Shown here: positions 19,684 to 45,276 of the stretch, piece by piece
Numbering within the stretch: the first letter of the stretch is position 1
Layout: each line of letters starts with the position of its first letter
Program-made: the position numbers and the translations under genes
The notes under the pieces: model-generated
What the model was told of the DNA's origin: nothing
Database searches by the model: none
The model's input: only the letters and a program-made list of their open reading frames with translations
Source: a virus
Reading direction: 5' to 3' (one strand)
IMG/VR virus record: IMGVR_UViG_3300010398_001198
Location: 32,001-96,000 of that record
Length of the DNA: 64,000 bases

Positions 19684-19800
19684 CCTTCGGAGAGAGGGTT
19701 AAGGGTGAAGATTTAAGGGTTACGGGTCCGAGACTGCTATGCATGTGCACCATCTTCGGCACTTTCCCCCACTTAAAACTTCACCCTTACAACGTAAAAC
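19684..19800 (-). promoter_or_regulatory. Heptad-array element, copy A
   Basis: Minus strand: GTTTTAC GTTGTAA GGGTGAA GTTTTAA, 46-nt core (GGGGGAAAG..GAAGATGGTGCACATGCATAGCAGTCTCGGA), CCCGTAA CCCTTAA ATCTTCA CCCTTAA, then GAAGGAG-ATG. Confidence 0.85.
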
Positions 19801-19808
19801 TGCCTGTG

Positions 19809-20075
19809 TTACACTGTTGCTTCTTCCAGCACATCTCGTTCCTGCGACAGCGCTGCCGGGAGGGTGGTAGCTCCGGCAGCGTCTGTCCGTGGTGCGTCAA
19901 GGCACATATGCTTCGTCCCCAGCACGGGACTGCGTGGGGGCCGCTGCGTCTGGTAGTGCCATTTCCCTGACACCGGGTGCTTGCGCCAGACCCGCAGCAG
20001 CACCAGCATGCCACAGTGCGGACAGGGGCCAAACGTGGGCTGGGGGGACGTGTAGCCGGCGAGAAAGGTGGGCAT
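19809..20075 (-). CDS. Small hypothetical protein with CxxC
   Basis: MPTFLAG...CPHCG; in the minus-strand operon. Confidence 0.5.
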   Translation of the reverse strand: MPTFLAGYTSPQPTFGPCPHCGMLVLLRVWRKHPVSGKWHYQTQRPPRSPVLGTKHMCLDAPRTDAAGATTLPAALSQERDVLEEATV

Positions 20076-20077
20076 GG

Positions 20078-20605
20078 TTAGTCTTCTGCCTCCAGAACCA
20101 ATGATAACTGGCACGGCTGCTGGGCATAGCGCTGCCAGGCACGCTGCACCGCCCCAGAGCCAGGGAACAGATCAACGAACTCATCCCCCGCCTGCATATT
20201 CAGCACGGCAAAGAGCCAGGAACAAAAGGCGAACGGTTTCACGCCAGCCAATCCCCGCTGGAGCGTAATATTTGCCGCAACCCAATCACGCACGGTGGGC
20301 TGGTGGCGTGTACGCGGACGGCCGCCCCAGACGAGGACAGGTTCCCACGTATAGGCTGGGTTCACGTGCGGCTTGAATATGGCAAAGGGTTTGACCCAGG
20401 ACATCACGCGCACCTCAGGAGGACACAGCGGTAGCAATATGCGCAGCGAGGGCGAGGAACAGGAGAGTGCCCAGCCGTCAAATGCCCCTTGGGTCAACTC
20501 GGCTAGGAGCACGCCATGATCGACTTCCGCACAGCGCGGATCAGCCTGGTAATGCCGCCGGGCTTGCCCTAGATACGGGGGATCGGCATAGGCAAAGCGC
20601 ATCAC
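20078..20605 (-). CDS. Small DNA amino-methyltransferase (N6A/N4C)
   Basis: ADPPY catalytic motif near the N-terminus and DLFPGSG SAM-binding motif near the C-terminus. Confidence 0.85.
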   Translation of the reverse strand: MMRFAYADPPYLGQARRHYQADPRCAEVDHGVLLAELTQGAFDGWALSCSSPSLRILLPLCPPEVRVMSWVKPFAIFKPHVNPAYTWEPVLVWGGRPRTRHQPTVRDWVAANITLQRGLAGVKPFAFCSWLFAVLNMQAGDEFVDLFPGSGAVQRAWQRYAQQPCQLSLVLEAED

Positions 20606-20779
20606 TCAGCATTCCTCCCGCGGGCGCTGCGCGTCCCACTGCTCTAACGTCTCCCGCCACAGCCGGACCTCAGCCGCATAGAGGCCGATCAGCCGCGACA
20701 CCCGGCGGGTTTCCCAAGCGAGCCAGCAGACGGCGCCCGCAATGATGATCAGTCCGAGCAGGGTGAGCATGGCTAGCAT
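20606..20779 (-). CDS. Small membrane protein
   Basis: MLAMLTLLGLIIIAGAVCWLAW; RBS GGAGGAGG. Confidence 0.55.
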   Translation of the reverse strand: MLAMLTLLGLIIIAGAVCWLAWETRRVSRLIGLYAAEVRLWRETLEQWDAQRPREEC

Positions 20780-21315
20780 CCCTCCTCCACGGCGCACGTC
20801 CAGCGCAGATGCCATCCTCCGGTGGCGCGTGGGATGGTGGCGGTGATCAGGGGGCAGATGGTTGTTTCCCAAGTGTCCCGGTGCAACCAGCTTGCAGCAT
20901 TCACGTCATAGAGGAGGGCCTTGCCCATCGGGGAGGTGGCGACACCGACCCAGTGGGTGTAGCGATAGGCGGCGCCGATAGGGACACGCGGCTCCAGCCA
21001 CGGGCCTTCCCATTGTACGAAGGCGAGGCCATAGCGCGGCCACTGTGTCCCGGTTTTGGTCGCGGGCCGTCGCGCCAGGCTGAGGGCCGTCCACATCGTC
21101 GAGGGATTCACCCAGGGGCGCTGGGGAAAGTCGGGAAAGAGCCGGCGCACGCGGGCCACGGGGACGCCGAGGACCGCCGCCAGGGCACACGGGCCACAAC
21201 TGGCCTTCCAGGCGAGATGCGCTTCTTCCACATCCGGGGGACAGTACAAGACGGTGCTCTCCGGAAAGACGCCAGGGGTCCAGGGATCATGCGGAAACAA
21301 CAGCAATTGCTGCAT
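20773..21315 (-). CDS. Papain-like (C39-like) cysteine peptidase domain protein
   Basis: SCGPCALAA ... THWVGV ... LYDVN, a Cys-His-Asp arrangement. Confidence 0.55.
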   Translation of the reverse strand: MQQLLLFPHDPWTPGVFPESTVLYCPPDVEEAHLAWKASCGPCALAAVLGVPVARVRRLFPDFPQRPWVNPSTMWTALSLARRPATKTGTQWPRYGLAFVQWEGPWLEPRVPIGAAYRYTHWVGVATSPMGKALLYDVNAASWLHRDTWETTICPLITATIPRATGGWHLRWTCAVEEGC

Positions 21316-21519
21316 CTAGTCGTCCTTCTCTCGCCGCAACCGATCAATCACCTCGCCCAGCACGTCATGCTCCCACGATAGCGCCGGGGCCTTGAGCCAC
21401 AGGGTCTCTTCCAGGTGCTCTGCCAGCTCGGCATCGGTCAGCGTCTCCAGCCAGGCGGCGGTCGCATAGGAGGCCGTGAGGCGCATCGTGAAGTCTTCCA
21501 GGCTGTACTGCACGATCAT
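21316..21519 (-). CDS. Hypothetical protein
   Basis: MIVQYSLEDF...; coupled operon gene. Confidence 0.5.
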   Translation of the reverse strand: MIVQYSLEDFTMRLTASYATAAWLETLTDAELAEHLEETLWLKAPALSWEHDVLGEVIDRLRREKDD

Positions 21520-21764
21520 GGGGCGTCCTCCTCCCGCACAGCCACGGCAAGAGGGACGAGGCGGAGTCCATAGAGGTCCCCCCCACGGACGATCCGGAGA
21601 CGCCGGCCCTGATCCTGCATCAGCTTCACGGCTTTCCGACTTTGGGGACATTGGCGACTCAGCGATGACCGGGCGTAGATGGTCCATATCTCACCATCAG
21701 GCGTCTGCACCTGCATGCCTATGTCGAGCTCATACAGGGCTTTGATCTTGCGATAGGTTGCCAT
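21516..21764 (-). CDS. Hypothetical protein
   Basis: 82 aa, coupled operon gene. Confidence 0.55.
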   Translation of the reverse strand: MATYRKIKALYELDIGMQVQTPDGEIWTIYARSSLSRQCPQSRKAVKLMQDQGRRLRIVRGGDLYGLRLVPLAVAVREEDAP

Positions 21765-21983
21765 CTAGGCCTCCTCCCCCATGCGGTCCACCCACACCTG
21801 CCGATAGCTTTTCAGCTCGCGCCAGCTCGTCTGCCCCCACGGCTGGGCCTCCCAGGCGATCCCGGACCGATGCCGGCGCATGCGCTGCAGCCGCCCCGTC
21901 ACCCACTGGCCCTGGTCGTGATAGATACCGAGCACGGGGGTGCCGGCCCGGATCAGGCGGTTGAAATCACGGACATCGCTCAT
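21765..21983 (-). CDS. Hypothetical protein
   Basis: 72 aa, coupled operon gene. Confidence 0.55.
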   Translation of the reverse strand: MSDVRDFNRLIRAGTPVLGIYHDQGQWVTGRLQRMRRHRSGIAWEAQPWGQTSWRELKSYRQVWVDRMGEEA

Positions 21984-22223
21984 CTAGGCTACCTCCTGGC
22001 GGTACTCTCTGACATAATCCATCAAGTGTGCCGGCAGCGGCACATGGTAAAACGTCTCCCGCAGCGCGGCCTGCTCGGTGGCGTACTCCCACTCGGCCAG
22101 GGTGATGCGGTCCTGGAGCAGCCGCCAGTAGCGCCCCTCCTGCTGCGGGGGGAGGGTGTCGCGCAGCAGGGTGGCGAGCTCGGTGAGGGCCGCGGTAAAG
22201 CGCGGGTGGTCGGTGTCGGTCAT
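21984..22223 (-). CDS. Helicase loader/inhibitor (G39P-like), short paralog
   Basis: Aligns end to end with the N-terminus of the upstream gene (PRF..L.ELA...YW.L....L.EWEYA..QA..RETF..VPLPA.LM). Confidence 0.6.
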   Translation of the reverse strand: MTDTDHPRFTAALTELATLLRDTLPPQQEGRYWRLLQDRITLAEWEYATEQAALRETFYHVPLPAHLMDYVREYRQEVA

Positions 22224-22789
22224 GCGCCCTCCTCCTTCCCGCCAATGAGCTTGCGCAGCGGGGTCAGTCCCCGTGGGCGGCGTCCCTCTGGGGCAAAGTC
22301 TTCCGTCAGGGGCAACCAGCGCCGTGGATCAGGCGGATTGATGTGGCCCAAGGCCACCTGCACATCCCGTGGCTGTTTCCTGATCCACTCCCGGTACTCC
22401 TCCTGCTTCTGGCGGTCCTCCTCCTCTTGCTGCGCCTGGGCCTCTTGCCACTCCGGGGAGGCCCGCAGCGCCTTGAGGGCCGCGTCTGCCTCCGCCTGCC
22501 GGGTCTGCTCCTGCGCCCGTTCAACGAGACGGGCTTCCCGCTCCTGGCGCTGGCGCAGTTCCTGGACAAAGTGCATGAGGACGGCGGGCAATGGGACCTT
22601 GTGAAAGGTCTCACGCCACATCGCTTGCGCCGCCGCGTATTCCCACTCGGGCAGACTCACCTCGTTGCGAAAGAGCGCCCAGTAGAGCCGCTGGCGCTCC
22701 TTCTCCAACTGGTCGCTGAAAAAGACGGCCAGCTCATTGAGGACCTCGAAGAAGCGGGGGGCGTCGTCCTGCGTCATCGGGTTGTTCAT
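22220..22789 (-). CDS. Helicase loader/inhibitor (G39P-like) with coiled-coil tail
   Basis: Immediately after the replication initiator; helical N-domain duplicated in the next gene. Confidence 0.55.
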   Translation of the reverse strand: MNNPMTQDDAPRFFEVLNELAVFFSDQLEKERQRLYWALFRNEVSLPEWEYAAAQAMWRETFHKVPLPAVLMHFVQELRQRQEREARLVERAQEQTRQAEADAALKALRASPEWQEAQAQQEEEDRQKQEEYREWIRKQPRDVQVALGHINPPDPRRWLPLTEDFAPEGRRPRGLTPLRKLIGGKEEGA

Positions 22790-23798
22790 GCAGCACCTCC
22801 TGTAACACTTCTGCCCCATTGCGCATGGAGCGATACGATTTCAGCGTGAGTCCATGCCGCGCCGCCGCCTCCTCGTCACTCTCGCGTTGCGAGCGGGCAC
22901 CTCCAGAGCCACGTTCCCGTGCCTTTTCTTCCTCTTCCAGCACCATCTGACACCAGCGATCCTGCCAGTCTAAGGGCTGGCTCTTGTACGTGATCACCTT
23001 AAACCGCTTGGTCAACAGTTCGAGATCGACATGGGGTGCGTCTCGTGCAGCTTGTGCCAGTCTCTCAGGCGTGGGTGCAAAGTCCTTCGGTGGCTTGTAG
23101 CGTCCTGCCGTGCCAGTAACCTGGGCTGCTATTGTCTCGTACGCGGGCGGGGGCGTATCCCCCTCCCCAAGATCTCTGGAAGTAATCTCTGAAGTAATCT
23201 CTGGTATTGTTGAGGTATTTTTACCTGACGATGAGGTATTTTTACCTGACGATGAGGTAAAAGTGCTATCACGATCAGGTATTTTTACCTCATCGGAAAT
23301 ATCAATAGCTTGTGAGGAATTTGAGTCTATATAGTCCTCGTCTTTTTCATTTTCAGGATCAGGCACTTTTACCTCATCAGCTCTTGCAAGGAGTTGCGCA
23401 GTTACCGCCTCGGGATGAAACAGAAAGTAGCGTGTATGATCGAAGCGGTAGCGTGTCGTAGGATTCTTGTGAACCGTCACAAATCCTTTCTCGATGAGCA
23501 GATCGAGGGCAACGCGAATCGTTTTGCGTCCATAGAGCCCGAGGAGTCCTTCTTCGATGGCGCTTTCATTCTGGAATTGCAATAGGGAGGTGTCCTGCTT
23601 GCCTTCTTCACCATGGAGGCGAGCGATTCGATTCGCGTGCATGGCTTGCTCACGATTCGCCAGTTTGTGGTTGTGCCAGTGCCCGAAAAAGGAGAGAAGC
23701 GCGGCGGCACAATGGTTGCCATCGCAGAGCACCAACTGTGACCTCCTGATGAGAATGAGGGGCTCTTTCTCGGGATAAGAAATACATGATGCTCTCAT
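22734..23798 (-). CDS. Phage replication initiator (lambda O/replisome organizer-like)
   Basis: N-terminal wHTH-like region (AAALLSFF...GRKTIRVALDLLIEKGFV), internal low-complexity KNTSSS/ITSEITS segment that coincides with DNA iterons, C-terminal DWQDRW motif. Confidence 0.75.
   Translation of the reverse strand: MRASCISYPEKEPLILIRRSQLVLCDGNHCAAALLSFFGHWHNHKLANREQAMHANRIARLHGEEGKQDTSLLQFQNESAIEEGLLGLYGRKTIRVALDLLIEKGFVTVHKNPTTRYRFDHTRYFLFHPEAVTAQLLARADEVKVPDPENEKDEDYIDSNSSQAIDISDEVKIPDRDSTFTSSSGKNTSSSGKNTSTIPEITSEITSRDLGEGDTPPPAYETIAAQVTGTAGRYKPPKDFAPTPERLAQAARDAPHVDLELLTKRFKVITYKSQPLDWQDRWCQMVLEEEEKARERGSGGARSQRESDEEAAARHGLTLKSYRSMRNGAEVLQEVLHEQPDDAGRRPPLLRGPQ
23211..23380. repeat. Iterons (probable replication origin) inside the initiator gene
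   Basis: TGAGGTATTTTTACCTGACGA x2 (23211, 23232), variants at 23253, 23276 and 23359; core AGGTA-TTTT-TACCT is palindromic. Confidence 0.8.
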
Positions 23799-23862
23799 GG
23801 CTACACCCTCATTCTCAGTGTGACGGATGTCACATCTTCTTTACGACAAAGAGCAATACCTC

Positions 23863-24540
23863 TTAGTGGGTGTGTTGACACTCTCTGCCCATGGCTCGAT
23901 AGGCAGCCTCTTGTGCCGCCTGCTTCATGCGATCAATATCAAAGGAGTACGCAAATCCATGTTCTGTGGTCCATTCCAGCTTGAAGAAATCCACCTGCTC
24001 CAGCCTATAGAGACAGCCAAGAATTGTTGGTGTTTCTTCAACGGTATATGCCCGTAAGATTGCAAAGGATATCCAGCCATAACAGCGCAATGGCTCAATG
24101 GTCCAGGCATTTGCATGCTCGAACAGCGCTAATGCTGTAAAGGCTAGAGATGGCGTGTCCATGCGAGGGAGCGCATGAATACTTAGGATATGCAGCCAGG
24201 TTAAGGACACAGGGCATGTATAGACAAAGCCACCATCATCTGGTGCTGTTCTCTCCTCTTGGGCTTCTGGTAATTGGTGCGTATGTTTCTCGCCCCAAAA
24301 TCGCCAATCTCCCTTACTTACGAGATATGCTCGAAACTCCTCGACCCCCTTCGTATTCTTCCGGCTATTACACGAGTTGCACGCAGGTACGAGGTTGGCT
24401 AACTCATCGCCACCCCCGTTGTTGCGTGCGTCTTGATGCTCAATCGTGAAGTCGTCAAAGGGATTCATCTGCTTGCCACAGTACCAACAGTGTCCATTGG
24501 TCTTCGCCCAGACCTGCGGGCGATATTGCTTGTAACTCAT
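23863..24540 (-). CDS. HNH endonuclease with an extra C-terminal domain
   Basis: CWYCG...TIEHQDARNNGGGDELANLVPACNSCNSRK; probable start MSYKQY at 24540; AT-rich. Confidence 0.85.
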   Translation of the reverse strand: MSYKQYRPQVWAKTNGHCWYCGKQMNPFDDFTIEHQDARNNGGGDELANLVPACNSCNSRKNTKGVEEFRAYLVSKGDWRFWGEKHTHQLPEAQEERTAPDDGGFVYTCPVSLTWLHILSIHALPRMDTPSLAFTALALFEHANAWTIEPLRCYGWISFAILRAYTVEETPTILGCLYRLEQVDFFKLEWTTEHGFAYSFDIDRMKQAAQEAAYRAMGRECQHTH

Positions 24541-24678
24541 GCTCTGCCCTCTCTGCGTGCAAAACTGCCTACGATTGAGTAGGCTTATGTGACATTGCAA
24601 GACGTTCAATGAGAATAAGCAATGTCTAAATGCATGAGAGGATTGTAGCATTTTCAAATGTAACCTGCAACAAATCTC

Positions 24679-24707
24679 TTGCAATAAAGCATATCTTCCG
24701 GCATACT
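24679..24707 (+). promoter_or_regulatory. Sigma70-type promoter in an AT-rich divergent region
   Basis: TTGCAA-N17-CATACT upstream of the XRE gene. Confidence 0.55.
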
Positions 24708-24729
24708 CTCTTCTAGGAGGCCATGCATT

Positions 24730-24975
24730 ATGACGTTGGGTGAACGCATACGAGCCCGTCGAAAACGTCTCGGATTGAGTCAGGGCAAGCTGGCGCGTCG
24801 GGCAGACATTGATCAGGGGCAACTCTCCCGCATTGAGTCGGGTGAGACGACCAATCCTGGCATTCAGCCCTTGACCGCGATTGCGCGTGCCCTCGACTGT
24901 TCGCTGGACTACCTTGTGGACCGCTATGATGAGGACCATGTTGACCCCTCATGTGCGATGGCTGCCTCTACCTAA
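24730..24975 (+). CDS. XRE-family HTH regulator (Cro-like)
   Basis: MTLGERIRARRKRLGLSQGKLARRADIDQGQLSRIESG...LDCSLDYLV; RBS AGGAGG. Confidence 0.9.
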   Translation: MTLGERIRARRKRLGLSQGKLARRADIDQGQLSRIESGETTNPGIQPLTAIARALDCSLDYLVDRYDEDHVDPSCAMAAST

Positions 24976-24988
24976 CCCTGGACCCCCC

Positions 24989-25677
24989 ATGCGCACCCTG
25001 CTCCTCGCCACCGTCCTCCTCCTCGCCCTCCTGGTACTGCTGCTGCGCCTCCAGGAGTTGCACTGGGGCGATGTGGTCGAGGCGCTGTGGCTGCTCGTGC
25101 GGCGCTGGCGCTAACCCTGGAGGTGCCTATGCCCCCTATGCCTCGTCTCCGCATTCCCCGTCCCCGGCAGTGGCGGCGCTGTTTCGCCTGTCATCGCACG
25201 TTTCGTATTCCGACGCCGTTGCGCATGCTCTGCCCGGTCTGTTGCTGGCGACAGAAGCTCTATGATGAGGTCCGCCATGCCTGAGACCCTCGTACCAGCT
25301 GTCCGCGTCTGTCCCCACTGCCAGCAGCCCCTCGTCTGTCGCCTGGCCGATGAAGGTGCCGGGGTCTGTATCGGGGCGGTGCAGGGGTACTACACCGATG
25401 CTGGTATCCTGCTCCACCTGTGCGCGACCCATGCGGGGCTGTGGGACACGCATACGCCCACCCTTCCCTTGGGAGAGCACCGATGACCAATATGTTCGTC
25501 CGCTTCCCTCGTGATGGCGTCTGGCAGAGCGTGGAGATCGACACCCTCACCGATGCCGAACTCGTGACCTTTTTTTGCCAGCAGGACCCCGACACGGTTC
25601 GAAGGTGGGCCATCGACCTGGCCATCTGGATTCGGGACCATGTGCAGGTGATCCCTGATGAGCCTGCTGATGCCTGA
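24989..25677 (+). CDS. Four small coupled hypothetical genes (24989-25114, 25129-25284, 25277-25486, 25483-25677)
   Basis: Overlapping start/stop codons; one membrane peptide and two CxxC-containing peptides. Confidence 0.5.
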
Positions 25678-25688
25678 GGAGACTCCCT

Positions 25689-26066
25689 ATGGCCCATCGT
25701 CTGCCTCCCCTTTATCCGCCGACTTGGAAAGAGTTCTCGCGCTACATTCGTTATGGGCGGGCGAAGGGGCAATGTGAGTGCCCAGGTGGTCCCGGCTACT
25801 GTGGCTTGCACTGCACCCATCCTGGCCCCCGGCGCTGTGTCGAACGCGACCAACAACCCGCGATCTGGGCCAATGGCGTTGTCGTGCTGACCGTCGCGCA
25901 CTGTTGCCAGTGTGAGCCCTTGTGTGTGATTCCAGAACATTGTATTGCGTGCTGCAATAGATGTCATTTGAGAATTGATATGCTCTTGCATCAACATCAT
26001 GCTGCTGAAACAAGACGTCTTTCTAAAGAAATGCTTGGTCAAATCCCTTTGCGTTTTATGACATAA
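25689..26066 (+). CDS. HNH-like Zn-binding phage protein with a replaced 3' end
   Basis: CEC...VLTVAH...CCNRCHL; the last ~45 codons are AT-rich. Confidence 0.75.
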   Translation: MAHRLPPLYPPTWKEFSRYIRYGRAKGQCECPGGPGYCGLHCTHPGPRRCVERDQQPAIWANGVVVLTVAHCCQCEPLCVIPEHCIACCNRCHLRIDMLLHQHHAAETRRLSKEMLGQIPLRFMT

Positions 26067-26101
26067 TCTGTTAGAATATGGCATCAATAGAGGAGAGATA
26101 G

Positions 26102-26906: not shown

Positions 26907-26981
26907 CGGCGACGATCTCCCTGATAGTGAGTACGAATCTATCTATGGTCGCGAGGCCCTCCTGGACCGCCCCAACGGCCA

Positions 26982-27236: not shown

Positions 27237-27246
27237 GGCTCCTCTC

Positions 27247-27599: not shown

Positions 27600-27622
27600 C
27601 TTACGGACCTTTCTGCCCCTTC

Positions 27623-29761: not shown

Positions 29762-29923
29762 CTATCTCAGCCCAAGAATGATTACCCAGAACAACAACAC
29801 CCACCCGAGGAAGGCCAGCCCGCTGCCCACGGCGACCAGCACGAGGAACAGCCGCCGGTCACGGGTGCACGTCGCATGCTCGCGCGGATACCAGCGGTCG
29901 TCATCGTTGTGGGCTTCGACCAT
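29762..29923 (-). CDS. Small single-TM protein (not in ORF track)
   Basis: MVEAHNDDDRWYPREHATCTRDRRLFLVLVAVGSGLAFLGWVLLFWVIILGLR; RBS AGGAGG right after heptad element D. Confidence 0.65.
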   Translation of the reverse strand: MVEAHNDDDRWYPREHATCTRDRRLFLVLVAVGSGLAFLGWVLLFWVIILGLR

Positions 29924-29947
29924 GGCGACCTCCTGTGGAGGAGAGGG

Positions 29948-30020
29948 TTAAGGTTTAAGGGGGGAAATGGCCACATGCTCTTCCTCTCTTGCTTAAAACT
30001 TAAATCTTAAAACTTAAATC
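29948..30020 (-). promoter_or_regulatory. Heptad-array element, copy D (short core)
   Basis: Minus strand: GATTTAA GTTTTAA GATTTAA GTTTTAA, 31 nt, CCCTTAA ACCTTAA, then RBS-ATG. Confidence 0.8.
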
Positions 30021-30559: not shown

Positions 30560-30762
30560 ACGCCGTCCTCCTCTAGAGCCTCATTGGCCAGCCATTGGCG
30601 CAGGGCCTGCCGCTCCATCGCGGTCAGCACCAGCATGAGAAAGGCCACATGCGTCTCCGTTTCCATGGCGTCCCAGGCTCGCTGGAGCGTCTGCTTGGGC
30701 GTGGGGTGCTGCCGGGGCCTGACGCGGGCGGCCCGGCGCGGACGGGGCAGCGGCGCGGTCAT
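30550..30762 (-). CDS. Hypothetical protein
   Basis: MTAPLPRPRR...; coupled to its neighbours. Confidence 0.5.
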   Translation of the reverse strand: MTAPLPRPRRAARVRPRQHPTPKQTLQRAWDAMETETHVAFLMLVLTAMERQALRQWLANEALEEDGVWP

Positions 30763-31043
30763 GGCGTCTTCTCCCCTGGTGAGCGCCGTCTGACCCGCAG
30801 GGCGCGTGTCCAGCGATGACAACAGCACAGACAGCGACGCGGCTCAGGCACGCCGTCAAAGTGCACCAAATCAAAGGGGTGGACCTGCAGGGCCTGCGCC
30901 CAGCGCTCCAGCTCGGCCAGCGTCACCCCTTGTTCCTGGCGCTCGATGCGCTCCAGGCGCCGCTGACTGGTCTCTAACGTCGCGGCCAGCGCCTCACGCG
31001 ACTGCTGCCGGCGCACGCACTCGTCAAACAACAACATCTCCAT
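30759..31043 (-). CDS. XRE HTH regulator (Cro-like)
   Basis: SREALAATLETSQRRLERIERQEQGVTLAELERWAQALQV. Confidence 0.8.
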   Translation of the reverse strand: MEMLLFDECVRRQQSREALAATLETSQRRLERIERQEQGVTLAELERWAQALQVHPFDLVHFDGVPEPRRCLCCCHRWTRALRVRRRSPGEKTP

Positions 31044-31133: not shown

Positions 31134-31251
31134 GCGCAAAAAAATAGCACTATGCGCCTAGGGGTTTTTCCACAAAGCCAGACACTTCGCCTATTGTTTT
31201 TTTCGCTACAGTCCACTATTCTGTGCCAGATTCTGGTACGATAGATAAGCA

Positions 31252-31347
31252 GTTTTAAGCGTTAAGTTTTAAGTTTTAAGGGGGAGGAGATAGTGTAGGA
31301 TGGTGCGCATCTGCACCAGTCTCCGACCCTTAACCCTTAACCCTTAA
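31252..31347 (+). promoter_or_regulatory. Heptad-array element, copy B
   Basis: GTTTTAA GCGTTAA GTTTTAA GTTTTAA, 47-nt core (GGGGGAGG..AGGATGGTGCGCATCTGCACCAGTCTCCGA), CCCTTAA x3. Confidence 0.9.
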
Positions 31348-31377: not shown

Positions 31378-31860
31378 ATGGGACGCAGCCCGAAAATGCC
31401 GCTCGGTTCCTCGGAAGCGTTTGTGCTCCGGGCGTTGGAAGTCCGGGCCGCCGCTGCCACCCGCCTGCGGGTGGCGAAGGAGATCTCTGGGATCATGGAT
31501 AGGGACCTGGGACACCAGGCGGGGCTGCAACAGCGGCATACCAGTTCGATCCTGGCCGGGGAGAAGTGGCCCTCGTTGCGGGCGCTCCTCTACCTGGCGT
31601 TCAGCCTGGAGGTGCCCCTGTCGCAGCTCCTCGTTCCATCGCCCAGCAGCGTCGAGGAGGACGATCTTGCTGCGCATCTCCAGGCCATCCCCGACCTGCG
31701 CGCGCTCGTCTCTCGCGTGGCCCGGTGGCCCGCCGCGGACGTGGCCGCGCTGCGCCAACTTGCCACCCTCCTGGAGCACCGCCGCACCGTGCTGCCGGGT
31801 TTTGTCGCGATGCTGGAAGCGACCGCCGTGCTTGCCCCGCCGGCACCCTCTCCCGTCTAA
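31378..31860 (+). CDS. XRE HTH repressor (cI-like, no peptidase domain)
   Basis: LGHQAGLQQRHTSSILAGEKWPSLRALLYLAFSLEVPLSQLL; divergent from the cro-like gene. Confidence 0.75.
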   Translation: MGRSPKMPLGSSEAFVLRALEVRAAAATRLRVAKEISGIMDRDLGHQAGLQQRHTSSILAGEKWPSLRALLYLAFSLEVPLSQLLVPSPSSVEEDDLAAHLQAIPDLRALVSRVARWPAADVAALRQLATLLEHRRTVLPGFVAMLEATAVLAPPAPSPV

Positions 31861-37535: not shown

Positions 37536-37544
37536 AAGGAGAGC

Positions 37545-38072: not shown

Positions 38073-40630
38073 TGGCACCGCCGTCGTTTGCCACCCTGTT
38101 GCCCCACTCGGTCCTTCTGGATCACGAGCAAGGGATTGTCCTGCTCATGACCTCGCCCAGTCGCTGGCAGGCCCCGCGGCTGGCCCTGGGGTGTGCGTGG
38201 GCCGTCGAGCCGCGCAATATCGAAGTGCTCGATGAGAGCGTCTGCACAGACATTGCGCGCATGCACGAAAGTCTCCTCAAGAGCTTGCCGCAGGGAGCTG
38301 CCCTGCAAACGATCATGACCATTCTGCCTGCCACGGAGGCGCCGGCCTGGACGGCCTTGCGGCCAACGACGACCGATGCTCCCGCGCAGGCTTTGCTGCT
38401 CCAGGAGCAACAGATGGCCCTGGCGGACGGGTTGCCGCACCGCGACGGCACCACATTGGGGCGGTTGCGCACGGTGCAGACCCTGGTGACCGTGCGTGTC
38501 CCCCTGCAGGGACTCCTACCCACGGTGACGCGCCTGGTGCGGAGTGTGCTCGCCTTGCCGCAGCACCATCGGCGTTCCTTAGGGCAGCGCCTGGCTGCGG
38601 AGTTGGAGGAGACGTTGGCGCATCTCGGGTCCTTGCGGCACGGCATTACGGAAACGTTGCGCAGCGTCGGGCATCGCGTCGAGGCGCTCGACGGGACAGC
38701 GCTGGGGCAGGCCCTGGCGCGTGCACTCGATCCCTCTGCATCCGGTGTGCCGGCGATTGACGCGACCAGTCCCCTCGGGGAGCAGGTCCTGCAACGGCCC
38801 CTCACCCAAGTCCCCGGTGGCTTTGGCTATGTCGATGCCACTGGCACGCTGACCGAGGTGGCGCAGATGCTCTCCCTGCATCATGCCCCGCCGCAGACCT
38901 ATCCGGGCATCCTGTGTGCGCCCCGGGCGCCCGCCAGTACGAAACCGTTGGCCCTCTGGCAGGCCTGGGCGGGGCCGCTGACGCTGGTGGTCAATGTGGC
39001 CGCCGTCGATAGCCAGGCCGAGAAAAGCCGCTTGCAATGGAAGGCCCGCCTGGCAAGCTGGCACGGCAAAGAGCAGGAGAGCGACAGCAGCGATGCGGAG
39101 AACGTGACCCTGAAAAAAGAACTCCAGACGCTCTTGCAGACGCTCTTTGTGACCGGTGGGCAGATCTATTGGGGCCGCGTGCATGTGGTGCTCTGGGGCG
39201 AGCCACGCGCCGTCAAGCGTGGCCTCGACGAGGTCCAACGGTTGGGGCGGAGCCTGGACCTGGAATTTGCCCCGGAGCCTGGCGCCCTGGGGTCCACCCT
39301 CTGGTTGCAGACGCTGCCCCTCGGCTTTGACCCGGCCTATCCCGCAGAGAAGATCCTGCAACGTGCCCGGCGTATTCCGGGGGACATTCTCTCGGACCTG
39401 CTGACCCTCTACGGCGGCTGTCGCGGCACGGCCACGCCCGGGCTGCTCTATCTCAATCAGCGCGGCGAGACCGCCACCTGGCACCCCTTTGACTCGGCGA
39501 CGAACCCGCACCTCATTATTACCGGGACGTCCGGCGCGGGCAAAACCTTTACCGTGGCGCACCTGGTCAATCAGTTAATGCCCCTCGGGGCGACGATGGT
39601 CCTTGTGGATCCGCTCACCAATTACCGGCAGCTCTGTGAGCTCTGGCAGGGGGACTATGTGGCCTTGGGCTTTGAGCGCCCGCCCTGCATCAATCCCTTT
39701 GCGGGGCCGCTCGACAGCCAGCATGTCTCCTTTCTCACGGCCATCCTGGCGCAGATGGCCGGGGGCGGCGGCGATCGGCTGACCTGGGAAGAGTTTAATG
39801 TGCTGGGGAACGCCGTGGGCTATTTTGCGCAGCACTGGGACACGCAGCGCGGCGAGCCCACGCTGGGCGTGTTTCATCAGGAAGTGTTGCAGGAGGGGAT
39901 CTTTGAAGAGAAAGATCGGCGCTCGCGCATGCTGGGGCGCCAACTGGCCCGCAAGCTCGGGCTCTTTGTCGGCAACGGCCCCTATGTCCCCTTTCTCAAT
40001 GGTCCCAACACGTTTCGCGTTCGCCCAGGCTTGACGCTCCTGGAGTTGAATCAATTGGAGAAAGCGAAGGACCTGCAAGCCATTCTGTTCTTTGCGCAGG
40101 TGCACTTTTACACGACCTTTTTCCGCGACCCGCAGCACTTCTATACCCCCAAATACATCCTGTTTGACGAGGTGTGGGCGTTTGACAAGTTTCCGCAAAC
40201 GGCGGATGAGGTCGATAAGATCGTCCGCACCTACCGCAACTTTCATACCTGTGCCGGCTTTCTCTCGCAGGATGTCAAAACATGGGATACCCCGATGGGG
40301 CAGGTGATTCGGTCGATTGCCGGGCTGCGGCTCTTTCTCCAGCAAGCCGGGGGCGAGCTCCCGAAACTCAAGGACCTCTTTGACTTGACCGACGCCGAGA
40401 TGCAGGTCTTTCGGCAGGTGAAACGGCATGCTGACTGGTCGAGTGGCTACCTCCAGGTGGACGGCGGCCACGGCGGCGTCCTCCGCCTGATTCCGGATCT
40501 GTATACCAAACTCCTCATGGCGCAAGACAGTGCGCTGGCCCAGCGGCGCCGGGCACTCCTCGCGGAGACCGGTGGCGATCTGGCCCGCACGATGCGCACC
40601 TTGCTCCAGGAGGCGCGGGCGCATGCGTGA
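38072..40630 (+). CDS. traC: TraC/VirB4 ATPase
   Basis: Walker A GTSGAGKT, Walker B ILFDEVW, RTYRN..CAGFLSQ; start at 38072 coupled to traV. Confidence 0.92.
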   Translation: MAPPSFATLLPHSVLLDHEQGIVLLMTSPSRWQAPRLALGCAWAVEPRNIEVLDESVCTDIARMHESLLKSLPQGAALQTIMTILPATEAPAWTALRPTTTDAPAQALLLQEQQMALADGLPHRDGTTLGRLRTVQTLVTVRVPLQGLLPTVTRLVRSVLALPQHHRRSLGQRLAAELEETLAHLGSLRHGITETLRSVGHRVEALDGTALGQALARALDPSASGVPAIDATSPLGEQVLQRPLTQVPGGFGYVDATGTLTEVAQMLSLHHAPPQTYPGILCAPRAPASTKPLALWQAWAGPLTLVVNVAAVDSQAEKSRLQWKARLASWHGKEQESDSSDAENVTLKKELQTLLQTLFVTGGQIYWGRVHVVLWGEPRAVKRGLDEVQRLGRSLDLEFAPEPGALGSTLWLQTLPLGFDPAYPAEKILQRARRIPGDILSDLLTLYGGCRGTATPGLLYLNQRGETATWHPFDSATNPHLIITGTSGAGKTFTVAHLVNQLMPLGATMVLVDPLTNYRQLCELWQGDYVALGFERPPCINPFAGPLDSQHVSFLTAILAQMAGGGGDRLTWEEFNVLGNAVGYFAQHWDTQRGEPTLGVFHQEVLQEGIFEEKDRRSRMLGRQLARKLGLFVGNGPYVPFLNGPNTFRVRPGLTLLELNQLEKAKDLQAILFFAQVHFYTTFFRDPQHFYTPKYILFDEVWAFDKFPQTADEVDKIVRTYRNFHTCAGFLSQDVKTWDTPMGQVIRSIAGLRLFLQQAGGELPKLKDLFDLTDAEMQVFRQVKRHADWSSGYLQVDGGHGGVLRLIPDLYTKLLMAQDSALAQRRRALLAETGGDLARTMRTLLQEARAHA

Positions 40631-41093
40631 TCCCAAGCCCGTGCTCCTCCTGCTGTGCCTGCAAGGGTTGGGCCTCATGCTCCTCGCCGGCTGGTGGGCA
40701 ATGCAGCCGGCAGACGAGCGGGTCGGGCGCCTCGTCACCCTGGCGGTGCAGGAACAGGCACCGCTGCCGCCGCCACGGGATCTCCTGGGGCAAGCCCAGT
40801 GGCTGCGCCTGCATCGGCAGCAAACGGGGCAGGGCCTGCTCGGGCTCCTCGCCGTGGGCTTCGTCATCGGGATCGGGGAAGGGCTGGCGACCCGCGCAAC
40901 GGACCGCCTGGCGGGCTTTCGGCTTCAGCGCTGGACGTGTGGCGTGGTGGGCGTGGCGCTGGTGCCGGGACTGGTGGCGGCCTATCTCGTCCTGCCCTGG
41001 CCCCTGCCACTGCGGCTGGTGGGCGGCGCGGGCTGTGGTCTGCTGGCCGTCATGGGCTGGTGTCTGTGTGCAGGGAAACCGTATATTGCCTAA
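40623..41093 (+). CDS. Conjugation-associated membrane protein (DUF4400-like)
   Basis: Four hydrophobic segments; VIGIGEGL..R pattern. Confidence 0.55.
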   Translation: MRDPKPVLLLLCLQGLGLMLLAGWWAMQPADERVGRLVTLAVQEQAPLPPPRDLLGQAQWLRLHRQQTGQGLLGLLAVGFVIGIGEGLATRATDRLAGFRLQRWTCGVVGVALVPGLVAAYLVLPWPLPLRLVGGAGCGLLAVMGWCLCAGKPYIA

Positions 41094-41097
41094 ATGA

Positions 41098-41126
41098 TTG
41101 AATTTACTATGAATTATGGGTATAAT
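41098..41126 (+). promoter_or_regulatory. Strong internal sigma70 promoter ahead of the HNH gene
   Basis: TTGAAT-N17-TATAAT. Confidence 0.75.
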
Positions 41127-41207
41127 AAGGCAAGAAATGCAACGCCTTGCGACGATGTGTGGTGCATCGCCACAAGGCTCCACCCTTATATCTGGTTAGG
41201 AGATATC

Positions 41208-42389
41208 ATGGGTAGTATCCAAATCATTGCCTCTCGTTGTGCCCTCTGTCAAGACGATCCACGCTCCTTTCGTTCATATGCTTCTGTCATTGATATCAGT
41301 GGACAGACCTTTCATCGGCTGACGGTCGAGCATTTTGTCGGTATCGGACGTGCGCGACTAGCCTTCTGGTGTTGCCGGTGCGCCTGTGGTCAGGGGGCTA
41401 TTGTGAGCGGCAACGCGCTGCGCCATGATTCCACGAAATCCTGTGGTTGCCTTGTCCATGAGACGGTCAATGCCGGGCAGTTTCAGCCGACGCATGGGAT
41501 GACCAACACACCACTCTTTCGGACGTGGTGCAACATGCTGACCCGCTGTCTGAATGCCCATTCTCCTGATTATGAGCGCTACGGCGCTCGCGGTATCACC
41601 GTGTGCCCTCAGTGGCAGGCCTCGTTTGAAACGTTTCTGGCAGATGTCGGAGAGCGTCCAGCAGGGATGACCCTGGATCGTATTGACGTCAATCGTCCCT
41701 ATGAGCCGGGCAATGTGCTCTGGAGTTCTCCACGGGAGCAAAGCAATAACAAACGGAACAATCATTTCTTGACCTTTCAAGGACGATGCCTTTCGTTGGC
41801 GCAATGGGCGATAGAGCGTGACATTCCCTATGCAGCCTTATGTAGTCGCGTGAGGGCGGGCTGGGCTGTCGAGAAAATCTTGACGACACCTGTTCGGATA
41901 CGCCAACGCTCGCTTCCCTCTGCCGAGTCAGCACAACCAAGAAAGGGCTGGGGCAAATACAGCCATGGCATGAGTAAGACGCGCCTGCATCGGATTTGGC
42001 GGGGGATTCTCAATCGGTGTCTCAATACGCGCACGCCAGCCTTTCCCGACTATGGCGGGAGAGGCATCATGATCTGTGAGCGGTGGCGGCAATCCTTTCT
42101 GGCTTTTTATGAGGACGTGGGCGATGCGCCAGATGGCATGAGCTTGGAGCGTCTTGATAACGCTGGCCATTATGAGCCTGGCAATGTGCGGTGGGCTTCC
42201 CCGTTAGAACAAGCCAACAACAAACGGAACACGCGCCTGCTTCGCTATGCGGGAAAAGCACAATCTGTCGCTGCGTGGGCGCGTGAACAAGGATTACCAC
42301 TGGCGACTGTTTGGGGCCGCTTGCGATTGGGGTGGTCTGTCGCGGATACCTTATCAATCCCTGCCAAACGACAGCAAGGAGTGCTCTGA
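41208..42389 (+). CDS. Double-domain HNH homing endonuclease
   Basis: CRCACG...TKSCGC; two copies of HGM..T.L..W..M..RC.N.....Y..YG.RGI..C..W..SF..F..DVG..P.GM.L.R.D....YEPGNV.W....EQ.NNKRN. Confidence 0.9.
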   Translation: MGSIQIIASRCALCQDDPRSFRSYASVIDISGQTFHRLTVEHFVGIGRARLAFWCCRCACGQGAIVSGNALRHDSTKSCGCLVHETVNAGQFQPTHGMTNTPLFRTWCNMLTRCLNAHSPDYERYGARGITVCPQWQASFETFLADVGERPAGMTLDRIDVNRPYEPGNVLWSSPREQSNNKRNNHFLTFQGRCLSLAQWAIERDIPYAALCSRVRAGWAVEKILTTPVRIRQRSLPSAESAQPRKGWGKYSHGMSKTRLHRIWRGILNRCLNTRTPAFPDYGGRGIMICERWRQSFLAFYEDVGDAPDGMSLERLDNAGHYEPGNVRWASPLEQANNKRNTRLLRYAGKAQSVAAWAREQGLPLATVWGRLRLGWSVADTLSIPAKRQQGVL

Positions 42390-43660
42390 TGATTACAGCT
42401 CTTGTGCGACGTCTCCTTTTCCCGAGCATATTTTGTATGCTCCTCCCGTCTCTGGTCTCTGCTGATCTATGGGATGATGCTCGAAAGGCGACAAGAGCAG
42501 ATATCGCTTTTCAAGATGCCGCAGGAAATACCATCCGAGGGACCGTGAATTTCCAGAGCGGTCAAAGCCAAGCCAATGTCACATTATTTCGGGGCAATGC
42601 GCAAGTGGGTGGTCCCTGTGGCAGCTTCAATCTCGGCGCTTCCCTGAAAGACGCGTTTGAGACCATCCCCGATCTTCTCCAAACAGCAGGCGAGGCAGTC
42701 TTACAGGAATTGCCACTATTAGTATTATGTTATTCTGCACCTAGCGTCTGTGATATTTTCAAGCATTACTCCTCGCTCATCTCGGCGCTGGTGCAGGCGC
42801 GCTATGCCTCCTGCCAGCAGATCCAGACGGCGATGAGTTACGGTGGCATGCGGTTGCGGGGGGGCGCGGTCAGTCAGTGCTTGGAGGAACAGGCGAACAC
42901 GGGCGCGACCCTCAACCAGGCGATGGCGACCTGCAACGGGCGCGTCGATGCGCTGCGCCGGCCTGATGGGACCACTGGCATTGAAGCGAATCTCATCAAA
43001 GACACCCTGGCTGCAGCCGGCGCCAGTACGGAATCCCAGACCCTGGCCCATAGCCTCCTGGGGGAAGTGACGTTGCGCGCCGGCGGCAACCAGCTCACGG
43101 CGCAGTCCGAACGGCCTCAGGCCGCGCTCCTGGCCCAGTATGCGGAACGGCGGGTGGCGGCCGAGCAGCGCTTGCGGGATGCGGTGCAAGAGTACCGCGA
43201 CACCGGCACGCTCTCGCCGGCCACGCAGCAGGGGCTCTCCGTGCCTGGCCAACCGCTGCCACGCGTCGTCCTGGATGCCCTGGTGACGCTGGACAGTGAT
43301 CCGGTGCGTCGGGATGTGTACGTGGGCAAGCTGGCGACTGGGGTCGCCCTGACGCAACTCGTCTGGGACTGCCACCAGCTCAGTGATGAACTCCAGGCGG
43401 CGATTCAGGCCAACAACCATCTCACGGATGAGGCGCGGCGACTGCTCGAAGCCAAGCATACCGCGCTGCGGCAGAACCTGGCGGAAGTTTTGCAGAAGGT
43501 CGAAGTGATGGAAAAACAATATCAGCCGGCGATTGACACCCTCCTGCGGGAGTACACCGCCGTGCAGCAACAGGCCACCAGTGTGGGGTTGCGGGCACCC
43601 GCCGTGACGGTGCCGAGTATGCCCTACCGGACCCAGACACCCATGGGCTACGGACGCTAG
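42389..43660 (+). CDS. TraH/PFL_4711-like conjugal transfer protein
   Basis: Signal peptide; GPCGSFNLGASLK motif; helical/coiled-coil C-terminus; upstream of the traG-like gene. Confidence 0.6.
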   Translation: MITALVRRLLFPSIFCMLLPSLVSADLWDDARKATRADIAFQDAAGNTIRGTVNFQSGQSQANVTLFRGNAQVGGPCGSFNLGASLKDAFETIPDLLQTAGEAVLQELPLLVLCYSAPSVCDIFKHYSSLISALVQARYASCQQIQTAMSYGGMRLRGGAVSQCLEEQANTGATLNQAMATCNGRVDALRRPDGTTGIEANLIKDTLAAAGASTESQTLAHSLLGEVTLRAGGNQLTAQSERPQAALLAQYAERRVAAEQRLRDAVQEYRDTGTLSPATQQGLSVPGQPLPRVVLDALVTLDSDPVRRDVYVGKLATGVALTQLVWDCHQLSDELQAAIQANNHLTDEARRLLEAKHTALRQNLAEVLQKVEVMEKQYQPAIDTLLREYTAVQQQATSVGLRAPAVTVPSMPYRTQTPMGYGR

Positions 43661-43713
43661 GAGGGGTTATCGACTTCCTCTTTCTCTCATTACCCGAAGC
43701 CCTCTACGGCTAC

Positions 43714-45147
43714 ATGGGATTATCAATCCAGGCCCTCATCCGGGGCTCCGCCTTGCGCCAGCTGCCCCGCGTGATTGTGCTGGGCTGGTCTCTGGCCCTC
43801 CTCGCACGCGTCATGTTTCGTGGGGGCAGTCTGCGCCCGCTGGTGACCTACTTTGTCAGCAGCCTCCTCATCGGGATCCTCTTCTGGCCCGAAGCGGTCA
43901 TCTTTGGCCGGCGCACCGCCTTTGTCACGGATGCGACCCGCGTGACCTCCTATGTGGCCAGTCAGGACCCCGGCGCCGAGGTGGTGACCGCGGCGGATAC
44001 GCAGCAGGTGCCGCCCTTCCTGCAACCGCCGAGTCTGATTGCGCCGGGCTTTGGCATCCTCCTGCGCGCCTGGACGAACTTCTCGCTGGCCATCGCCCGT
44101 GCCATCAACAGCGAGACGCATCAACCCTTCCACAGTCTCCTGCCCATGCAGTGGCTGCTCGGGGTGTCGCTCACGACGGACATCACCAACGGCATTGCCG
44201 ACTGGGTGCACAACTGCTACCTGCCGGTGCAGACGATGACGTTGGAAGCGCAGCAGGGGCGGACGGTGGATGACCTGCTCCCCTGGGGCGACACGCCCTT
44301 ACGCCAGGGCTTAGCGACCCGCAGTGTCATTCCCGGCGCGCAGACGGGCATCACCTTCATGCAGAGCACGGCGGCCAGTCGTGAGGTGGCCTGTGATGTC
44401 TACCTCGACGCGCTCGAAAGTGACACACAAGCGTGGCTGTTCCAACTGCGGACGCCGCGCAATACGCCGCTGCTCCAGGTCTTTCAAGAGGACCTCGGCA
44501 TGGAGCCCCAGACACAGGCGCGCTTTATCCTGTACCGGGAAATGCTGCGGGCCTCGCAGGGAGGTGGCGTGCCGGCGCCGAGCCTGACCGGGACGTATGC
44601 CGCGCTGCGCGGCCTCGCGGTGGGCGGGCAAGCCGTGAGCGGGGCTGCGACGGGCTGGCTCTCCGGCATTGGGGCGCTGATTGGCACAGCCACAGGCACG
44701 GTGCGCGGGCTTGGCACCGAGTTCCAGGCGGTCATGAGTGGGCTGTCCTGGCTTATCCGGGCGGCGATTCTCCTGGTGTGGTTTGCGCCCTATGTGGTGG
44801 GGATCGTCACCATGGTGCACATCGCGCTCTTCCCCATCGTGCTCCTCTGGGTCTTCCTCAGCCCCGGCTCGCAACTCGTCATCCTGGCGCAGTACTTTGT
44901 CGCGCTGCTCTTTACCTCGTCGATTCCCCTCTGGTGGGCACTCGTGGACCAGGTGACGAAACTGGCGGCCAGCGCGGTGCCCAGTGCGGGCAGTGGGTAT
45001 GATGCCGCCATCCTGGGCTTCCTGACCTCTGGGCTGTGGGTAGCGACCCTGACGGCTGTGGGTATTCTGCTCATCCCGGTCATCACGTGGAGCATCTATT
45101 TTAAGACGTTTCGCTATATCAATGGACTGGCGCGTGTCGGCGCCTAG
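43714..45147 (+). CDS. TraG-N/VirB6-like polytopic membrane protein
   Basis: Several TM segments; VHNCYLP...CDVY motifs. The only good RBS (GGAGG at 43660) suggests the start may be ~15 codons earlier at a non-ATG codon. Confidence 0.65.
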   Translation: MGLSIQALIRGSALRQLPRVIVLGWSLALLARVMFRGGSLRPLVTYFVSSLLIGILFWPEAVIFGRRTAFVTDATRVTSYVASQDPGAEVVTAADTQQVPPFLQPPSLIAPGFGILLRAWTNFSLAIARAINSETHQPFHSLLPMQWLLGVSLTTDITNGIADWVHNCYLPVQTMTLEAQQGRTVDDLLPWGDTPLRQGLATRSVIPGAQTGITFMQSTAASREVACDVYLDALESDTQAWLFQLRTPRNTPLLQVFQEDLGMEPQTQARFILYREMLRASQGGGVPAPSLTGTYAALRGLAVGGQAVSGAATGWLSGIGALIGTATGTVRGLGTEFQAVMSGLSWLIRAAILLVWFAPYVVGIVTMVHIALFPIVLLWVFLSPGSQLVILAQYFVALLFTSSIPLWWALVDQVTKLAASAVPSAGSGYDAAILGFLTSGLWVATLTAVGILLIPVITWSIYFKTFRYINGLARVGA

Positions 45148-45155
45148 GACAGGGA

Positions 45156-45276
45156 GTTTTAAGTTGGAAGTTTTAAGTTTTAAGGGGGAAAGGTTCAGAA
45201 GATGGTACGCGACTACATCAGTCTCCGACCGTAACCCTTCAAACTTCACCCTTAACCCTCTTCTCCGAAGGAGAAG
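45156..45276 (+). promoter_or_regulatory. Heptad-array element, copy C
   Basis: GTTTTAA GTTGGAA GTTTTAA GTTTTAA, 44-nt core (GGGGGAAAG..GAAGATGGTACGCGACTACATCAGTCTCCG), ACCGTAA CCCTTCA AACTTCA CCCTTAA, CCCTCTTCTCCGAAGGAGA-GCCCATG; closely matches copy A. Confidence 0.9.

Follow-up and report, generated by a model that had tools for sequence, protein, structure and literature searches.

The 64,000-nt window analyzed here (bases 32001-96000 of the 122,663-bp IMG/VR virus record IMGVR_UViG_3300010398_001198; 63% GC; 77% complete according to CheckV) contains four copies of an intergenic cassette, in which facing arrays of 7-nt repeats enclose a core next to the start of a phage or conjugation (tra) gene. 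The record belongs to a soil phage that has conjugation genes as well. A preliminary description of the window had reported these four sites, all of which were confirmed by our scans; a motif scan over the whole record gave nine elements instead of four, five of them outside the window. All nine copies have the same build, namely three to five direct TTAAGnn heptads, a core, and two to four inverted heptads. The copies in the window are named A (window position 19699), B (29948), C (31255) and D (45159), and the outside copies are named by their contig start. Positions are those of the window unless marked as contig positions.

Contig 86-140: element 86, adjoining an HNH gene.
Contig 3330-3426: element 3344, before a scaffold gene (phrog_673), behind which lies the gene of the major head protein (phrog_1005, E 3e-56).
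Contig 6581-6643: element 6581, before a 147-aa open reading frame (ORF) without a family match.
Contig 16238-16335: element 16238, before a 133-aa ORF without a family match.
19699..19797, minus strand: element A, long form, with a partly degenerate left arm (TTACG, GTAAG, TGAAG, TTAAG), a 47-nt core in gene-forward orientation, and a right arm of four heptads (GTAA., CTTAA, CTTCA, CTTAA).
29948..30017, minus strand: element B, with a shortened 32-nt core, inverted with respect to its arms of four TTAAG and two CTTAA heptads.
31255..31347, plus strand: element C, long form, with four direct heptads, a 48-nt core and three inverted heptads.
45159..45255, plus strand: element D, long form, starting 12 nt after the stop codon of a 477-aa gene.
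Contig 98217-98313: element 98217.

With at most one mismatch allowed, the pattern TTAAGNNTTAAG matched 15 times in the window, compared with 0.25 expected, and all 15 matches fell within the four sites. A three-heptad pattern gave six matches in the window against 0 expected, and a control scan of the record with the reversed pattern gave none. Of the 75 TTAAG/CTTAA pentamers in the record, 54 fall inside the nine clusters. Avoidance of TTAAG outside the elements was considered and rejected, the observed/expected ratio being 0.9 under a third-order Markov model and TTAA being generally low.

Every copy is intergenic and non-coding, and the copies form AT-rich islands placed exactly at gene boundaries of this GC-rich genome. 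They usually start 0-12 nt past the upstream stop codon; in B, the first heptad contains the stop of the 181-aa gene upstream. Between the gene-side arm and the start codon that follows it are 22-34 nt, or 64 nt at copy 3344, and this interval contains a Shine-Dalgarno (SD) hairpin. The nine sites at gene starts span the early, tra and late modules, with four copies (86, 3344, 6581 and 16238) falling in the head/tail module.

The five fixed positions of the heptad are nearly invariant among the 67 heptads (T65 T59 A67 A64 G67), and the remaining two are free, being predominantly TT in one arm and, read on the other strand, GG in the opposite arm. The cores are 10-11 nt long in copies 86 and 6581 (..GTTTCGGAC..), 32 nt in B and 45-48 nt in six copies, and the 10-nt core is a remnant of the long core GGGGGAA...CTCCGACC. 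An alignment of the seven longer copies, each turned to the orientation of its core, shows homology from end to end with 71% column identity, and the unit is polar, with the order TT-arm, GGGGGAA..GGTTCGGAGGATGGTGC..CTCCGACC, CC-arm. Copies A, C, D and 98217 carry the unit in forward orientation to the gene behind them, 3344 and 16238 carry it reversed, and in B only the core is reversed. Overall, the nine dispersed copies are 60-80% similar and occur in both orientations. The combination of outer ends with inner segments is different in C and 98217, and the inner segments are flipped relative to the outer ends in B and 98217. A and D have the same degenerate heptads in common and are thus evidently paralogues. 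Variants are mirrored between the arms, with TGAAG accompanied by CTTCA in A and D and TCAAG by CTTGA in 98217.

The core GGGGGAA..GATGGTGC..CAGTCTCCGACC (45-48 nt), earlier described as common to A, B and C, was recovered in the copies at 19699, 31255 and 45159, whereas the copy at 29948 has a shortened version in the opposite orientation. The imperfect palindrome noted in the core is a perfect GGTGC-N6-GCACC in the 31255 copy only, where it forms the apex of the predicted fold. A reading of the core as a leader peptide (ATG GTG ...) was rejected, as 98217 lacks it and 16238, 3344 and B have it on the wrong strand.

The tail CCCTCT(T)CTCCGAAGGAGA..CCCATG, also pointed out in the preliminary description, is real and common to the copies at 19699 and 45159, and proved to be an SD/anti-SD hairpin: in CCCTCT..CCGAAGGAGA..CCC, the SD pairs with an anti-SD within a mini-hairpin. 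Such mini-hairpins were found at four copies.

19680..19694, minus strand: mini-hairpin of A, CTCTCC-GAA-GGAGAG, 3 nt before the ATG of a 364-aa gene; -7.4 kcal/mol.
29929..29941, minus strand: mini-hairpin of B, CCTCC-ACA-GGAGG, 5 nt before the ATG of a 53-aa ORF.
45260..45276, plus strand: mini-hairpin of D, CTTCTCC-GAA-GGAGAAG, 3 nt before the ATG at 45280; -8.3 kcal/mol.
At element 16238: mini-hairpin CACTCC-GAA-GGAGTG.

The predicted energies of the four mini-hairpins are -6.4 to -8.3 kcal/mol; all of them end 3-5 nt upstream of the ATG, and compensating changes distinguish their stems. A perfect SD hairpin precedes 4 of 9 element genes versus 1 of 150 other genes (159 gene calls; Fisher p 2.4e-5). 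The SD is buried in larger hairpins at copies 6581 and 3344, making six copies with a buried SD overall, and copy 86 has a relic SD-like hairpin without a start codon behind it. At 16238 the heptad unit is flipped, yet the orientation of the SD hairpin to the gene is unchanged, and the SD hairpin is therefore a separate gene-side module. This phage seems to occlude the SD repeatedly.

The cassettes themselves fold, in all nine copies, as long imperfect hairpins with predicted energies of -14.7 to -53.3 kcal/mol and z-scores of -0.25 to -7.4 (A: -35.9 kcal/mol, z -3.0; C: z -4.1). A scan of the window with Rfam at gathering thresholds gave no match. The long palindrome alone cannot discriminate between action as RNA and as DNA, and the SD hairpins are a better argument for a role at the RNA level.

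The closest relative found is the virus record IMGVR_UViG_3300010398_000034 (hereafter G001; 27.8 kb, L362 and L363), which shares 84% identity in the major head protein, 90% in the scaffold protein, 85% in the product of g6678, and 65-80% at the nucleotide level. The 27.8 kb of G001 contain zero TTAAG heptad pairs and, at the same junctions, no substitute repeat, and the element is missing at all three orthologous gene starts. At the scaffold gene junction the flanks are conserved, and the ~97-nt element stands opposite 23 nt in G001, as expected of a filled and an empty site. At the g16359 junction, G001 has a 13-nt spacer with an SD overlapping the upstream stop codon, compared with 175 nt containing the element and the SD hairpin in our record. 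At the g6678 junction, G001 carries an extra 76-aa ORF in place of the element. In addition, a 6-kb block (contig 10345-16184; eight genes including a 551-aa ORF) is missing from G001, where the homologues of g9482 and g16359 are adjacent, and element 16238 forms the right edge of this block. Thus, two of the three copies comparable with G001 lie at gene-content breakpoints, namely the 6-kb indel at 16238 and the extra ORF at 6581. The 23-nt G001 spacer matches a stretch of the 3344 core at 14 of 19 positions, which may be due to chance and was not used.

G001 also joins matches to the right end of our record (contig 116773-122131) and to its left end (1179 onwards), ~6 kb apart (L362:488-4389 and L362:10250 onwards). 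Since both ends lie ~6 kb apart on one G001 contig, they are genomic neighbours, and the genome is circular or circularly permuted; copy 86 is located near the junction of the two ends. At its contig end (L362:99-221), G001 has a 58-nt-armed palindrome of repeated CTCTAGAGGTAC units preceded by ACCCAG hexamer repeats, which may be a different repeat-armed hairpin element.

More distant comparisons gave a similar picture. No TTAAG clusters were found in 43 TraU-relative loci from soil metagenomes (~26-63% identical, the nearest ~45-60%), and no period-7 array of any kind in ten TraU-relative loci scanned for one, some of which include kilobases upstream of traU. No close relatives were retrieved from IMG/VR by searching with TraU, the 364-aa protein or a 1654-aa protein singly. 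Neither the long core (AGTTTTAAG-GGGGGA) nor the short core gave more than chance matches in AT-rich contigs among 2.9 million IMG/VR contigs. Arrays being absent from G001 and the TraU loci and the cores being unique in IMG/VR, the sequence comparisons show that the cassettes are recent gains at gene junctions of this lineage, or were lost from its sister, and are not operators or other operon parts passed on by descent.

The heptad arrays, in distinction from the cores, are widespread. An exact scan of IMG/VR for four TTAAG heptads returned more than 116 stretches, and ~66 of those listed are on GC-rich contigs; chance cannot explain AT-rich arrays in such contigs. Among the matches listed, the GC-rich array-bearing contigs share almost no protein with our record. 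In these listed contigs, 72 of 89 distinct CTTAAnn arrays have, no more than 20 nt behind them, an ATG that starts an ORF of 50 aa or more, versus 2 of 87 in the opposite direction; many of the loci are mutually related and hence non-independent, and several gene families are included. The same proportion (72/89) end 6-16 nt upstream of the ATG, with a distance mode of 8-11 nt, and the starts are SD-less. Approximately one in ten of the listed arrays is of the hairpin type. The same arrays are present in GC-rich bacteria of the Verrucomicrobiota, Desulfobacterales, Competibacteraceae, other Gammaproteobacteria, Acidobacteriota and Bacteroidales, where the directional link to an ATG is weaker than in phages but real (18/56 vs 4/55, p 0.0015). 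The occurrence of a motif across the host chromosome, as the site of a host regulator, had been named earlier as the outcome that would speak against a phage-specific system. The data approach this outcome, in that start codons are abutted by these arrays in GC-rich phages without relation to ours and on the chromosomes of bacteria from several phyla. In another phage group, CTTAAnn arrays are often preceded by ~9-nt CACAGAGRA runs (L077, L093, L101, L108, L118 and others), and one IMG/VR locus (L053) has three hairpin-type sites, one of them with ~18 consecutive heptads.

TTAAG-heptad strings were not found in any paper in the literature. The nearest described class is that of heptamer repeats before start codons, which includes TAACTGA in Beggiatoaceae, cyanobacteria and Bacteroidetes (MacGregor 2015, PMC4679880), TTTTGAA/TTCAAAA in Nostoc (bioRxiv 10.1101/2022.06.06.494920), and elements of four to five heptads in Geobacter metallireducens (PMC2700814). 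A post-transcriptional role has been proposed for these repeats, whose mechanism is not established (PMC4679880, 10.1101/2022.06.06.494920, PMC2700814). Like them, the arrays described here are tandem 7-nt units in two to six copies in intergenic regions; members of the class are oriented toward the start codon and end close to it, precede functionally unrelated genes, and are patchily distributed over phyla. The heptad here is TTAAGnn/CTTAAnn and not TAACTGA, making it a relative of the class but not of that sequence family. Further differences are the pairing of inverted arrays around a conserved 45-nt core, the 63% GC phage/conjugative element as carrier, and the classic SD between array and ATG, which a hairpin of its own locks. 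On the best reading, our cassettes belong to this widespread and mechanistically unexplained class, of which they are a variant.

A similar layout is known from Cluster K mycobacteriophages, in which some of the genes have a phage-wide repeated, SD-containing motif (SAS) 3-7 nt upstream of the ATG (Pope et al. 2011, PMC3203893). About half of the SAS have imperfect inverted repeats with a variable spacer upstream (ESAS), and a role in translation was proposed (PMC3203893). Both are conserved at the same Cluster K gene families and limited to non-structural genes; the ESAS arms are 17-bp units, for which the authors saw little support for RNA hairpins (PMC3203893). Our elements resemble them by analogy of layout only, the sequences being unrelated: CYCTCC-GAA-GGAGRG stands 3-5 nt before the ATG in four copies, and inverted arms surround cores of 10-48 nt. 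In contrast to SAS and ESAS, the element is absent at the same genes in G001, four copies lie in the head/tail module, the arms are heptad arrays, and the SD hairpins show compensating changes.

The omega operators of pSM19035 (inc18 plasmids) are contiguous 7-bp WATCACW repeats, direct and inverted, located upstream of several operons. The likeness to them suggested in the preliminary description holds for the layout, with two or more contiguous 7-bp repeats, direct and/or inverted, in a mobile element; it does not extend to the sequence, TTAAGnn being unrelated to WATCACW, nor to a cognate protein. Moreover, a 45-nt core separates the arms here, and the arrays are inside operons beside start codons and not at mapped promoters. 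REPIN/REP repeats and miniature inverted-repeat transposable elements (MITEs) are short, non-coding, hairpin-forming sequences dispersed between genes in both orientations and variable between relatives. Our elements share with them terminal inverted repeats, dispersed copies in both orientations, and presence or absence relative to G001 at a delimited site; they differ in having arms of tandem heptads and a tight coupling to start codons, and neither RAYT nor target duplication was found. Finally, the PeSL cassettes of T4-type phages provide a precedent for stem-loop cassettes at gene boundaries (PMC2839356, PMC4122927). Both are repeated 50-100-nt intergenic stem-loop motifs at gene boundaries that coincide with indels or replacements between relatives. 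PeSLs have a recognisable early promoter, of which no consensus is seen here, and they are neither built from heptads nor provided with an SD-locking hairpin.

The genes next to the elements in the window, and the two HNH genes of the record, are as follows.

18582..19676, minus strand: 364-aa gene behind A, with phrog_10048 (unknown function) as its sole match.
23863-24939, minus strand, and contig 255-905, minus strand: HNH endonuclease genes with PHROG and Pfam matches.
29762-29923, minus strand: 53-aa ORF behind B, its ATG 5 nt past the SD mini-hairpin.
30759..31043, minus strand: 94-aa XRE/Cro-type helix-turn-helix (HTH) gene (Pfam HTH_3, E 6e-5), divergent and ~210 nt to the left of C.
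31378-31860, plus strand: 160-aa ORF, C ending 30 nt upstream of its ATG.
45280..45865, plus strand: ORFs behind D, a 120-aa membrane/zinc-ribbon ORF followed by a 76-aa ORF (45635-45865).
45868-47121, plus strand: traU, next after the 76-aa ORF.

Pfam matches support the TraU and TraD labels given earlier and confirm TraC/VirB4, TrbI, TraU and a TraD-type coupling protein in the record; the identity of the latter to gammaproteobacterial TraD is only ~29%. A 562-aa protein has one short phage match. Several other labels were lost. The 364-aa gene, called a single-strand annealing protein, has no Pfam match, and the tested ORFs behind B, assigned to HAD and ParB, match neither. The supposed cI-like repressor, the 160-aa ORF, has no Pfam or other family match, the XRE HTH gene of this region being the divergent one, to which the cI-like label would apply if to any; XRE HTH genes lie near both C and 98217 (the latter at L127:1525-1905). 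The ribbon-helix-helix (RHH) label of the 76-aa ORF gained no Pfam match, and what stands of it are weak RHH-fold leads from structure and features (Arc/CopG/NikA-like; TM 0.5-0.6, feature score 0.89-0.91). This ORF occupies what we take to be the position of relaxosome RHH proteins (TraY/NikA type) in tra operons, and its location would suit a relaxosome accessory protein of the TraY/NikA type better than a global repressor.

Profiles of Omega_Repress (PF07764) and RHH_1 (PF01402) had no match at E<=1 in the six frames of the 122-kb record, and no profile match to Y1 transposase/RAYT (PF01797) or the 23S-IVS protein was obtained in the record. Scans of B, C and D found, within the elements, neither sigma-70-type -35/-10 promoters, a consensus that may not be the host's, nor intrinsic terminators, and the hairpins have no U-tract behind them. 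A weak -35/-10 candidate, TTGTTT-17-TATTCT (~31195-31224), would put element C in a 5' untranslated region.

A second intergenic repeat, CCTGTCGG(C/AT)AGCGTGCGSC, is present on the minus strand in four copies at contig 98192, 104727, 105038 and 108320 (L127: 2192-2211, 8727-8745, 9038-9056 and 12320-12338). Three copies follow a stop codon, and those at 104727, 105038 and 108320 are followed by a GC-rich hairpin and an SD with a start codon; one copy abuts the heptad element 98217. This repeat possibly serves the leftward operon at 98-110 kb as a promoter or leader motif.

Taken together, we interpret the heptad elements as lineage-specific, spreading gene-start cassettes that act in cis, probably on RNA, and put the probability of this interpretation at about 0.4. 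The cassettes would be transcribed within operons and act in cis on the RNA. The gene-side, G-less CUUAAnn array would be the device that abuts SD-less starts in other GC-rich phages and bacteria, where it may load ribosomes or aid translation start. In our record, the inverted arm would hold this array in a long hairpin and a second hairpin would lock the SD. In this way, the cassette would determine or gate how the next cistron is expressed, with RNase III-type processing or a heptad-reading factor as possible means. The cassettes may have spread by insertion or by recombination between copies.

A number of points weigh against this interpretation. There is no difference in fold strength between sense and antisense strands, and RNAalifold detects hardly any covariation in the arms, owing to the conservation of the heptads. 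On these grounds, the long palindrome could act as double-stranded DNA. Template switching at quasi-palindromes can create mirrored variants without selection. The near-invariance of TTAAG implies that something reads the sequence and not the pairing alone, and such a sequence-specific reader could be a DNA-binding protein. The long hairpin would mask an 'unstructured landing pad', which makes the proposed gating speculative. With respect to spread, no target-site duplication was seen at the element ends and no transposase in the record, and the gain/loss comparison rests on one close relative, a 22%-complete fragment.

An alternative view, which widens the earlier idea to sites within operons, is that the cassettes are operators or 'stoperators', where a phage or host protein polymerises on the TTAAG heptads of double-stranded DNA, one dimer per heptad like omega on WATCACW, and silences or co-regulates nine genes in the carried state. 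Direct and inverted heptads with five of seven positions near invariant and two free have the look of a protein-read repeat, and nine gene-start sites across the early, tra and late modules, folding without strand asymmetry, a possible RHH-fold ORF in the operon behind D and XRE HTH genes near C and 98217 also favor it, while orientation independence suits binding to double-stranded DNA. We nevertheless regard an operator as unlikely. The record has no Omega_Repress or RHH_1 profile match, the 76-aa ORF stands where relaxosome RHH proteins presumably do, several degenerate heptads are retained in A and D, G001 has neither sites nor a substitute repeat at the same junctions, and the SD hairpins are unaccounted for. 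Furthermore, unrelated phages with almost no shared protein have the same arrays in a strict orientation toward starts, which a symmetric operator does not need. What survives of the earlier idea that one element ties phage and tra genes together is that it precedes both, as well as head/tail genes. A dedicated operator or promoter for RHH, XRE or ParB-like proteins, as part of a regulon, is at odds with the array-free G001 and ~50%-identical TraU loci, the occurrence of units in either orientation, and the lack of a sigma-70 consensus in B, C and D.

Somewhat less probable still is a selfish MITE- or REPIN-like palindrome with the heptad arms as terminal inverted repeats, moved by a host enzyme, tolerated in intergenic positions alone and without a role in expression. 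It would account for nine dispersed copies of 60-80% similarity in both orientations, for presence and absence relative to G001 including one cleanly bounded filled/empty site, for the relic SD-like hairpin of copy 86, and for inner segments flipped relative to outer ends in B and 98217. However, neither a target-site duplication nor a Y1/RAYT transposase was seen, and the absence of both core types from the 2.9 million IMG/VR contigs leaves no sign of a wider mobile family; moreover, the cassettes end precisely at SD/ATG contexts with the SD hairpin gene-oriented despite flips, which looks selected. A PeSL-like terminator/promoter cassette, whose hairpin stops or attenuates upstream transcription, whose AT-rich heptads are a promoter for the host polymerase or a phage factor, and whose copies recombine to shuffle modules, has the T4-type precedent (PMC2839356, PMC4122927) and agrees with the AT-rich islands at gene boundaries, with the two of three G001-comparable copies at gene-content breakpoints, and with the geometry of leaderless transcripts in other GC-rich phages, whose arrays end 8-11 nt before SD-less ATGs. 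We consider it the most doubtful of all these explanations, as B, C and D have no sigma-70-type -35/-10 match (the host promoter type may differ), the hairpins lack a U-tract, the SD leader after the array means that transcripts are not leaderless here, and two units are reversed relative to the gene, an arrangement incompatible with a directional promoter.

In annotation work, comparative checks are needed before such arrays are called private operators of a phage repressor. Heptamer arrays before starts have been known in a few bacterial groups for a decade, with the mechanism missing, and the record offers a clean test system, with nine paralogues in both orientations, short and long forms, copies with and without an SD hairpin, and an array-free relative. 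The finding of identical CTTAAnn arrays at SD-less starts in unrelated phages and bacterial phyla argues for a common reader. It can be speculated, improbable as we judge this extension to be, that the heptads are sites of one cross-phylum cellular reader for SD-independent start selection, e.g. a ribosome-associated or cold-shock/S1-type factor with a 7-nt footprint, and that the cassettes are portable, self-locking 'expression gates'. If so, gates consisting of an enhancer arm, an anti-enhancer arm and an SD lock would spread between gene junctions and promote module shuffling, and would represent a so far undescribed mobile device of translational control.

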